Notes under the pieces: generated by a model
Seen by the model: the letters and a program-made list of their open reading frames with translations, nothing else
Database searches by the model: none
What the model was told of the DNA's origin: nothing
Position numbers and translations under genes: made by a program
Source of the DNA: Escherichia phage Turkey3
Length of the DNA: 64,000 nucleotides
Strand: one strand, 5' to 3'
Sequence record: PQ471515.1
Shown: one piece after another, positions 54,602 through 55,672 of the stretch
Numbering within the stretch: the stretch's first letter is position 1
How the letters are laid out: each line of letters starts with the position of its first letter

Positions 54602-54629
54602 TTGATATAACTAAAAAGTATGCTATACT
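54602..54629 (+). promoter_or_regulatory. sigma70 extended -10 promoter upstream of lysozyme gene
   Basis: TTGATA 54602-54607, 16-nt spacer, TGcTATACT ending 54629. Confidence 0.5.
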
Positions 54630-54745
54630 ACTTAAATGTTCCAAAGAACAACTGAGTACTGTAGAAAGTCCAATGAGGCTTTTGCAAATGGCCTCTTTGC
54701 CCTCTTTGTGATTGCTCATTGTTAACAACCAACAAAGGAGGCGTT

Positions 54746-55672
54746 TTGAAAAAAGCGAAAAAAGCACTGAAAACTAAAATTGCCGTAGGCGTATTAGTTT
54801 CATCAGCCCTATTCGCTGCGATTGGATTTTATGGTTTTTCTCAAAGTGATCGTGCATCATCATTAGACGAAAGTCAGGTGCATAATTTAAAACCACAAGT
54901 TACGCAAATTCAAAAGCAGGAACTACCACAGGTGTCAGTACCAAAAGCAGTTCCAAGCAGCGAGAAACATTATACGGTTCAACCTGGTGATAGTTATTAT
55001 TCTATTGCACAGAAATTTAAACCTAAAAATGTACAGATTGAAGATTATGTCATTTTGTTGAAGAACATCAACTTAAATGCAACTCTTCATACTTCTCAGG
55101 GTATCTTTATCCCAACAAAAGAGGATTTGAAGAACGTATTGTTACCAGATGTGACTGTACTGTTTGATTATAAAGATCCAGAAATTGTCAATCACATCAA
55201 AGAAGCTGAAGGTTCTATTGAATTTCAGTCCAAGAACAAACGACGTTTACTTGGTGGGAAAGTTGGAGTTCCTTTCCACAATTCTAAATTTCATCCCTAT
55301 AAGGACATGAAAGGTAATTATACAATTGGTTATGGGCATTATTTGGGTAAGAAAGATTCTGATGCAATGAAGTACAGAAACGGGATTACCAAAGCACAGG
55401 CCAACAAACTTTTAATGCAAGATATGAAAAGGACTTACGAGGACTTTACACTATTGATGCAGAAGAAAGATGCAGTTAATCTGACAAAAGAACAGCAGCG
55501 TATCCTGTTTGAAATGTCATACACAATGGGCGTTGATAAATTGGCAACATTTGACAAACTTTGGAAAAGTGTTAAAATGGATAACCCTAAGAAGTTCAAG
55601 AAAGAAATCATGAATTCCTTGTGGTATCGCCAAGTTACAAACAGAGCGGATTTGCTGTTAAGCTCACTCTAA
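54746..55672 (+). CDS. membrane-anchored LysM-domain lysozyme (T4-lysozyme-like GH24)
   Basis: TTG start 4 nt after AGGAGG; N-terminal signal-anchor; LysM-like YTVQPGDSYYSIAQKF; catalytic region YTIGYGH and WYRQVTNRA match T4 lysozyme. Confidence 0.8.
   Translation: MKKAKKALKTKIAVGVLVSSALFAAIGFYGFSQSDRASSLDESQVHNLKPQVTQIQKQELPQVSVPKAVPSSEKHYTVQPGDSYYSIAQKFKPKNVQIEDYVILLKNINLNATLHTSQGIFIPTKEDLKNVLLPDVTVLFDYKDPEIVNHIKEAEGSIEFQSKNKRRLLGGKVGVPFHNSKFHPYKDMKGNYTIGYGHYLGKKDSDAMKYRNGITKAQANKLLMQDMKRTYEDFTLLMQKKDAVNLTKEQQRILFEMSYTMGVDKLATFDKLWKSVKMDNPKKFKKEIMNSLWYRQVTNRADLLLSSL

Follow-up and report, generated by a model that had tools for sequence, protein, structure and literature searches.

The 64,000-nucleotide (nt) stretch of Escherichia phage Turkey3 DNA analysed here (sequence record PQ471515.1), referred to below as the window, carries a lysozyme gene at 54746..55672 that encodes 308 amino acids (aa) and combines an N-terminal membrane anchor, a LysM-like module and a catalytic domain of the GH24 type. 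The gene is on the plus strand, as are the protein domains, regulatory elements, spanin genes and downstream gene described with it. It lies within a program-listed open reading frame (ORF) at 54719-55672 and is defined by its TTG start codon, by profile matches and by its orthologues. The start codon follows the Shine-Dalgarno (SD) sequence AGGAGG (54736-54741) after a 4-nt spacer, the two together occupying 54736..54748, and the orthologues are alike in this. In 40 homologues, with identities down to 46%, the start is found at the same aligned position and is TTG, GTG or ATG behind an AGGAG-type site; the annotated start of CBB_187, the homologue in phage CBB, is also TTG. Residues M1, A4, K9, T10, A24, A25, G27, G30 and D35 are each conserved in at least 90% of the 40. 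An earlier interpretation made from the letters of this DNA alone (the sequence-only reading) had placed the start at this TTG behind AGGAGG, which the homologues bear out, and had named initiation downstream of the hydrophobic helix as the alternative. The first Met after the start is M188, within the catalytic domain, and with the start itself conserved among the homologues a start downstream of the helix is not supported.

The 1.5 kb around the gene is 99.7% identical to Escherichia phage WPEC3, 99.5% identical to fEgEco12 and approximately 85% identical to 121Q, PBECO4 and phAPEC6, the last three being Asteriusvirus jumbo myoviruses with genomes of 348-386 kb. By these comparisons the window is Asteriusvirus-type (121Q/RaK2-type) jumbo coliphage DNA. 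Its approximate counterpart in fEgEco12 is the stretch from 63.5 to 127.5 kb, where all of the annotated genes are on the plus strand and most are either small and of unknown function or concerned with nucleotide or translation metabolism. No tRNA genes were found in the 64-kb window.

Residues 14-308 of the lysozyme are 100% identical to fEgEco12 Gp275, and the protein matches phrog_15410 at 6.4e-163. On sequence similarity it is the orthologue of 121Q gp532, CBB_187, fEgEco12 Gp275 and the product of the RaK2 gene called 'e'; phAPEC6 gp293 was confirmed as a further orthologue. Identities of the window protein to CBB_187, GAP32 gp180, 121Q gp532 and the RaK2 lysozyme are 48-91% by tblastn. 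The RefSeq name of the 121Q and PBECO4 orthologues is 'LysM peptidoglycan-binding domain-containing protein'. Homologues covering at least 80% of the protein occur in 70 phage records, of which 69 are genomes of 310-386 kb, and the hosts of those jumbo phages are Escherichia, Klebsiella, Salmonella, Erwinia, Yersinia, Serratia, Xanthomonas, Pectobacterium and Cronobacter. When 1.84 billion representative proteins were scanned with HMMER, only 11 (clusters) were found at E <= 1e-30 for the LysM-GH24 family.

The T4-type lysozyme domain occupies aa 144-308 (55175..55669) and is supported by Pfam, by an AlphaFold2 (AF2) model, by Foldseek and by alignments. The Phage_lysozyme profile (PF00959) matches with 44.2 bits against a cut-off of 22.3 (expect value E = 2.9e-11) and also matches 40 out of 40 homologues. 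The AF2 model, built from the 40-sequence alignment, has a predicted local distance difference test score (pLDDT) of approximately 90 over aa 72-308. Foldseek aligns it to T4 lysozyme (T4L) over the whole T4L length, with a TM-score of 0.68-0.69 (T4L-normalised), approximately 173 aligned columns and a probability of 1.00. In the HMMER alignment D187 falls on T4L D20 and T193 on T4L T26. The sequence profile stops short of the T4L N-terminal helix because a 23-residue insertion follows E155-G156; in a MAFFT alignment with soluble relatives and with T4L this invariant pair falls on E11-G12. The catalytic residues by alignment to T4L are E155 (55208-55210), D187 (55304-55306) and T193 (55322-55324), which would together form the predicted muramidase site. 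The sequence-only reading had recognised this region from equivalents of Glu11 and Asp20 and from the motifs YTIGYGH (aa 192-198) and WYRQVTNRA (aa 293-301), and the fold match, E155 and D187 confirm it.

The spacing of the catalytic Glu and Asp is 31 residues (E-x31-D), compared with 8 in T4L (E-x8-D). The 23-residue insertion lies within 55211-55303 (aa 156-186), is conserved, and is modelled with high confidence. Residues Q161, R166, L168, G171 and F182 are invariant in this region. A shorter, 13-residue version is present in soluble paralogues, including the 162-aa g331 of fEgEco12.

Ahead of the catalytic domain is a LysM-like module, aa 75-122 (54968..55111), identified from a partial Pfam match, from matches in homologues and from the topology of the AF2 model. 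The match of the window protein itself to Pfam LysM (PF01476) is marginal, at 21.5 bits against a cut-off of 20.9 (2.3e-4), and covers only positions 1-17 of the 43 in the profile. The profile is, however, matched by 23 of the 40 homologues at E <= 0.01, the best at 1.3e-6. DSSP applied to the model gives strands at 75-77 and 119-121 and helices at 84-91 and 98-108, with pLDDT of 88-93, which is a beta-alpha-alpha-beta arrangement, and the sole match outside the family in the first search was a bacterial LysM protein (4.8e-13). The LysM-like segment of the sequence-only reading is supported by the modelled topology and by the homologues.

The N-terminal 31 residues (54746..54838) comprise, by hydropathy and charge counts, a Lys-rich region, MKKAKKALKTK (aa 1-11), and a weakly hydrophobic helix, IAVGVLVSSALFAAIGFYGF (aa 12-31). 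There are six Lys and no acidic residues ahead of the helix, while the next 15 residues include one basic and three acidic. The helix is predicted to be a type II signal anchor with its N-terminus in the cytoplasm and its C-terminus outside. It is followed by a low-complexity linker rich in Ser, Gln and Pro (aa 32-72; 54839..54961), which is variable in length, has pLDDT below 50 and holds most of the insertions and deletions of the family alignment. The joining of such a helix to a lysozyme, as first read from the sequence, stands, the helix being conserved and inside the translated region.

Is the anchor also a release device? The sequence-only reading had noted a resemblance to a signal-anchor-release endolysin. 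In such signal-arrest-release (SAR) endolysins, of which P1 Lyz, P21 R (R21) and phiKMV gp45 are examples, depolarisation of the membrane by a pinholin lets the helix out of the bilayer, and this release activates the enzyme. Several features agree with this. P1 Lyz and P21 R have a GH24-type catalytic domain like that of the window protein, and the SAR endolysins share with it a helix at the N-terminus that is weakly hydrophobic and has many small residues, and an export, here predicted, that needs no holin. Gly, Ala, Ser and Thr make up 47% of the helix, and its best 19-mer has a summed Hessa free energy (dG) of +1.15 kcal/mol, a simple sum that does not separate stable from releasable helices. 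By the same sum what we take to be the P1 Lyz and P21 R sequences give nearby values, +0.46 and +0.78. The helices of the homologues, which have Leu-rich cores, average +0.15 (range -2.5 to +5.1), and ten other membrane ORFs of the window are more hydrophobic than the window helix (-0.25 to -3.6). Several homologues have Glu within the anchor helix (P0021, P0024, P0035 and P0053, with sequences such as AAAFEFIGF and AAAIELYGL), which is unusual for a stable transmembrane segment. Induction of CBB_187 inhibited the growth of E. coli, by its authors' statement with data not shown, and the same authors drew the comparison with SAR endolysins (PMC5259590).

Two of the features that define a SAR endolysin are not found here, and further points count against release. 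The catalytic domain begins at approximately aa 144, some 110 residues past the end of the helix at aa 31, and a 40-residue linker, the LysM module and a second spacer lie between them. The helix and the catalytic domain are thus not adjacent, and a refolding of the active site in which the helix takes part, as known from R21, is not available to it. Disulfide caging of the P1 type is impossible as well, since cysteine is absent from the protein. Six Lys precede the helix. Distant members of the family (P0071, P0072, P0075 and P0077) have N-terminal regions of 47-95 residues with 9-17 Lys and Arg ahead of it, and regions of this kind could not pass through the membrane. Among ten small membrane ORFs of the window none matched a holin or pinholin family, and the genes next to the lysozyme gene are a weakly 2H-phosphoesterase-like ORF and a gene for a ribosome-associated protein. 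Since neither an adjacent catalytic domain with its switch nor a nearby pinholin or holin was found, we do not class the protein among the SAR endolysins, and we regard a classical SAR mechanism as unlikely. The predicted topology, N-terminus inside and catalytic domain outside, does agree with that class. The evidence leads us to lean towards an enzyme that acts while tethered, or that is restrained mainly by control of its expression and by membrane energisation, rather than by a SAR refolding switch.

The charged N-terminal region is recognisably shared by three of the four distant members that have it. In the distant LysM-GH24 proteins it may be a cytoplasmic regulatory domain. A hydrophobic segment precedes the LysM and GH24 parts in all twelve of the top twelve family members, and for this reason export or anchoring is, as far as sequence can tell, a family trait, while an N-terminal releasable helix is not.

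Export could also proceed through a cleavable signal peptide. Lys44 of Oenococcus phage fOg44, which acts on a Gram-positive host, reportedly has such a peptide and is exported in a Sec-dependent manner before lysis. The mature window protein would then be free in the periplasm as a soluble LysM-lysozyme, and a collapse of the proton motive force would be needed to unleash it. A signal-peptidase motif that fits the -3/-1 rule, S-Q-S|D, does follow the helix in the lineage of the window, and two distant members, P0073 and P0074, have short N-termini that resemble true signal peptides. The predicted Sec export ahead of lysis is like that of Lys44, and so, presumably, is a restraint of the activity that lasts for as long as the membrane is energised. 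Unlike in Lys44, the cleavage motif is not conserved, position -1 being N or H in most homologues, neither of which is accepted by signal peptidase I, and the hydrophobic region, at 20 residues, is long for a signal peptide and of anchor length. We consider cleavage improbable.

The protein is already known, in silico, from its orthologues. Buttimer et al. (2017) named CBB_187 as the predicted CBB endolysin, listed GAP32 gp180, 121Q gp532 and the RaK2 protein as homologues, described an N-terminal transmembrane segment, a LysM-like middle and a C-terminal lysozyme domain, and likened the whole to the SAR endolysins P1 Lyz and phiKMV gp45 (PMC5259590). The four orthologues have the same three-part architecture as the window protein and do not differ from it in substance. 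The finding of the sequence-only reading is accordingly real, and re-derives an annotation and a comparison published in 2017.

Some records label the homologue 'tail lysozyme' or 'baseplate hub subunit', and the second-best PHROG match of the window protein is the baseplate-hub lysozyme family, as though it were a virion-associated enzyme for penetration of the wall at infection. That PHROG match is limited to the common GH24 domain, and an N-terminal membrane anchor is unfit for a tail component. In mass spectrometry of phAPEC6 virions the orthologue gp293 was not detected, while the hub lysozyme gp241 was. In the main text of the CBB paper CBB_187 appears in the section on cell-wall enzymes and is absent from the main-text passages with the virion mass-spectrometry table (PMC5259590). 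A virion role was rejected on the published mass-spectrometry data and is extremely improbable.

Upstream of the gene, a consensus scan gave a sigma-70-like promoter candidate at 54602..54629 (TTGATA, a 16-nt spacer and TG-TATACT; 10 of 12 positions, with the TG present), from which transcription would start near 54636. The sequence-only reading had given the gene its own promoter here. The elements are present and their position agrees with that in relatives, since CBB-type phages and RaK2 have TTGACA-17-TAAAAT ahead of the orthologous gene and 121Q retains the -10 element; the match taken alone is at chance level, 13 of such quality having been found in this AT-rich region against 10.7 +/- 3.4 expected. 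Host-type promoters are regarded as early in the RaK2/121Q phage group (PMC5259590). A literature search found no transcriptomics for these phages.

Downstream, separated by 15 nt (55673-55687) and on the same strand, is a gene at 55688..56020 for a ribosome-associated protein of the HPF/RaiA family (Pfam Ribosomal_S30AE, 2.3e-10). The genes for the wall hydrolase and for this ribosome hibernation factor are kept as a pair in phAPEC6, CBB and Xanthomonas phage XaC1, and the two are probably co-transcribed as one operon. The ORF upstream of the promoter, at 54168-54578 (136 aa, phrog_12204), resembles the 2H phosphoesterase domain PF22547 weakly and below threshold (5.9e-5); its counterpart in fEgEco12 is labelled 'viral L protein', which is implausible.

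Other candidate lysis genes are scattered. An Rz-like i-spanin gene at 45595..45969 (phrog_1152 'Rz-like spanin', 1.2e-27) encodes an N-terminal transmembrane segment and a periplasmic domain. Its stop codon is overlapped by 4 nt by a gene at 45966..46280 for an o-spanin candidate, a lipoprotein with the lipobox LISGC and a weak match to Rz1-like LysC that is below the cut-off (0.0045). The spanin-like pair that had been proposed 9 kb from the lysozyme gene (45595-46280) is thus well founded in the phrog_1152 match and the lipobox. The spanins of 121Q and PBECO4 have been classed under the 'separated' architecture (PMC6139136).

A distant relative shows another arrangement. In L019, a 30-kb viral contig with a lysozyme homologue that is 29% identical, the stretch 3173-5152 has overlapping i- and o-spanin genes and then the lysozyme gene approximately 240 nt downstream. 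These spanins are homologous to the i- and o-spanins of the window (5e-13 and 3e-15), the window o-spanin candidate being homologous to the one beside the L019 lysozyme. Between the spanin and lysozyme genes are a 34-aa membrane ORF, an intrinsic terminator and a AATAAATA motif, which resembles the late-promoter consensus reported for CBB (PMC5259590). The L019 protein seems to begin at an ATG at 3975, which would place approximately 95 cytoplasmic residues ahead of its transmembrane helix.

The sequence-only reading had suggested a search for a holin or pinholin elsewhere in the genome. In the window none was found among the ten small membrane ORFs compared with holin families. Three ORFs of the window (12150-12365, 22901-23161 and 23786-23977; 63-86 aa) have two predicted transmembrane segments each, a holin-like topology, and no PHROG match, so that nothing links them to lysis. 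In fEgEco12 the only holin candidate found is g406, approximately 128 kb away, a protein of 220 aa with one N-terminal transmembrane segment and a large C-terminal domain, which is the size and topology of T4 holin T. The assignment is weak (phrog_860 at 6e-4; HHpred E = 2.6 in the table of the fEgEco12 authors). The adjacent g405 and g404 (fEgEco12 246175-247514, with g406) correspond to the two halves of a single PHROG family, phrog_21209, one half each, with g405 giving a further match to the family of g406. The arrangement looks like duplicated or split paralogues, possibly antiholin-like.

The phage group also has a soluble enzyme. In fEgEco12, g331 is a soluble GH24 paralogue of 162 aa, 36% identical to the catalytic domain of the window protein. 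It lies directly downstream of g332, a baseplate-hub lysozyme of 887 aa (184426-187615), and corresponds to the last 160 residues of the hub family (2.5e-63), as if the lysozyme domain had been duplicated in tandem. LysUE1, a comparable 162-aa lysozyme from UE-S1, a phage of the same genus, lyses E. coli in vitro with ethylenediaminetetraacetic acid (EDTA) (PMC12805682). CBB_239, the CBB equivalent of g331, was not confirmed as a structural protein (PMC5259590). By analogy with the active LysUE1, and with the shorter insertion of g331, the GH24 subtype that carries the Glu-Asp insertion can be taken to be catalytically competent. The sequence-only reading held that the tethered protein was present instead of a soluble T4-type endolysin; at the level of the genome this was wrong, because the near-identical fEgEco12 has g331 and LysUE1 is active.

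As a second GH24 paralogue outside the virion, the soluble enzyme is a rival candidate for the endolysin. If final lysis is the work of the soluble 162-aa lysozyme, the T-like holin and the spanins, the tethered protein could be an accessory muramidase, made from an early, host-type promoter and acting to loosen or remodel the sacculus during a long infection cycle. The early/middle-type neighbours, the sigma-70-like promoter and the probable co-transcription with the HPF/RaiA gene fit such a role, as do the position of the soluble paralogue among late baseplate genes, the in vitro activity of the UE-S1 enzyme and the existence of a T-like holin candidate. Cells infected by Asteriusvirus Sharanji form filaments and bulges and then burst at the bulges (PMC11895373), which would fit a weakening of the wall before the final event, although this is only suggestive. 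The L019 homologue, on the other hand, adjoins spanin genes and stands behind an ATAAATA late-promoter-like motif. The 162-aa paralogue adjoins the gene of the baseplate-hub lysozyme and may itself be tail-associated, its CBB equivalent notwithstanding, and the two scores on which the holin assignment depends are poor. An accessory role is a serious possibility, but on this evidence we think it rather unlikely.

We favour the view that the protein is a conserved, Sec-exported, inner-membrane-tethered modular muramidase of the RaK2/121Q-type jumbo phages and that it is probably, though by no means certainly, a lysis enzyme that is exported without the need for a holin. An mRNA with a structured leader of approximately 110 nt would be made from the host-type promoter and translated from the weak TTG codon, the position of which is shown by its conservation. 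The Lys-rich N-terminus would stay in the cytoplasm while the helix acted as a type II signal anchor and the remainder was exported. The flexible linker of approximately 40 residues and the LysM module would set the GH24 domain on the peptidoglycan, where glycan strands would be cut at E155, D187 and T193. The damage would become lethal late, upon de-energisation of the membrane, probably by the T-like holin candidate, and the Rz/Rz1-type spanins would then break the outer membrane. The spanin genes 9 kb upstream in the window, and those near the lysozyme gene in L019, provide a lysis context for this proposal.

Several points weigh against it. With the soluble 162-aa lysozyme and the T-like holin candidate there could already be a full canonical lysis pair in which this protein has no part; since such a pair may exist, the tethered enzyme may be left as a second, possibly auxiliary, muramidase. 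Its gene is among early/middle-type genes behind a host-type promoter and not in a lysis cassette. The export, topology, release and lysis role of the orthologues are likewise predictions. The measure of helix hydrophobicity discriminates poorly, as the i-spanin helix has a dG of +4.95 although i-spanins are stable membrane proteins.

How could an exported wall-degrading enzyme be transcribed early? Between the promoter and the SD region the DNA contains TGTAGAAAGTCCAA (54660-54673) followed by a hairpin, and this stretch is conserved in relatives whose lysozymes share only 48-55% identity and whose flanking intergenic DNA cannot be aligned. Two hairpins can be drawn. Hairpin A (54661..54685), in which GUAGAAAGUC pairs with GGCUUUUGC, is the choice of RNAalifold and is near-invariant in relatives: 98.5% of cells are paired, compared with 30-59% when the 3' partners are slid. 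As there is almost no variation, its support comes from conservation and complementarity rather than covariation. Between its complementary halves the relatives have loops of 5 to 8 nt. Hairpin B (54675..54695) pairs GAGGCU with GGCCUC around a loop containing GCAA, and 91.5% of cells are paired compared with 20-51% when slid. It has two compensatory pairs (CG:7/AU:6/UA:1 and GC:7/AU:3/GU:2), and its observed score was reached by none of 500 shuffles. The hairpins are mutually exclusive because they have a middle strand in common, G-R-CUUUGUGC. That strand varies at two positions only, one of them unpaired in A and the other G or A, either of which fits both partners. In most lineages A and B differ in energy by no more than approximately 1-2 kcal/mol.

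Other explanations of the leader motif were considered. A repeated promoter or operator was rejected: the motif occurs once in the window, mismatched matches are at chance, and the variable loop argues for an RNA rather than a dimeric DNA-binding site. Hairpin B was rejected as an intrinsic terminator, as it has no consistent U-tract behind it and was not flagged by the terminator scan. No internal late promoter was found. A permissive Rfam search of 54450-54850 gave no match to the leader, and in the 64-kb window no Rfam family reached its gathering threshold. Scans of viral and metagenome sequences placed every full match ahead of the lysozyme homologue, and the remaining matches to the motif were short coincidences within coding DNA; three matches in bacterial genomes are within chance expectation by our own estimate. 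The literature search found no paper on the motif in a relevant context. The leader RNA element is apparently new, and is apparently the only new item here.

Two copies of CCUCUUUG (54692..54708) are complementary to the SD region and are a possible anti-SD element. In the minimum free energy fold of 54670-54755 the segment 54699-54710 is paired with the SD region. Sequestration of the SD in the window is no better than in shuffled sequences (z = -0.95; SD unpaired probability 0.20, shuffled median 0.24). It is strong, beyond shuffled leaders, in CBB, Yersinia, Serratia, Hallingskeid and EJP2, and not significant in 121Q. A simple relay, in which the choice of A or B sets the accessibility of the SD, was rejected: in a partial computation, forcing either hairpin left the predicted accessibility unchanged, so the relay is unsupported by thermodynamic folding.

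T4 gene e offers an analogy. A hairpin in its leader hides the ribosome-binding site in early transcripts. The window gene shares with it a host-type promoter, a structured leader and SD-complementary sequences, as well as being a lysozyme gene; it differs in that the alternative hairpin pair has no sequence similarity to T4 and the SD sequestration in the window is not significant. By this analogy our working hypothesis is that the leader gates translation of an early-transcribed, exported lysozyme. Tentatively, and as something we hold possible rather than probable, the leader at approximately 54636-54745 of the lysozyme-HPF unit would be an undescribed bistable cis-regulatory RNA, in which a trans factor or a physical signal picks A or B and gates translation together with the anti-SD segments and the weak TTG.

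Like T4 lysozyme, the product of gene e, and the lysozyme domain of T4 gp5, the window protein has the T4L fold and the Glu, Asp and Thr residues, and the lysis genes of its phage are scattered as in T4. Unlike T4 lysozyme, which is cytoplasmic until the holin acts, it has the 23-residue Glu-Asp insertion and an added anchor, linker and LysM module. The endolysins phiKZ gp144 (KZ144) and EL188 are like it in joining a wall-binding module to a muralytic domain, and they too come from jumbo phages with Gram-negative hosts. They differ in that the module is a PG_binding_1-type domain and the enzymes are soluble, with no membrane anchor, a contrast with endolysins of the phiKZ gp144 type that has also been drawn before (PMC5259590).

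The RaK2/121Q-type genomes thus appear to hold two non-virion T4-type lysozymes, one tethered and one soluble of 162 aa, with a weak T-like holin candidate and separated spanins, and published papers tacitly disagree over which lysozyme is 'the' endolysin. The question bears on whether a membrane-tethered muramidase with a long linker and a LysM module works without a classical SAR switch, and its answer would guide the choice of enzyme for antibacterial development. If the bistable leader is real, then an exported wall-degrading enzyme would be made only when lysis is due, despite its host-type promoter, and the lysozyme would be controlled by its synthesis rather than by SAR-type caging. If functional, the conserved leader would make this the second phage lysozyme under translational control, after T4 gene e.

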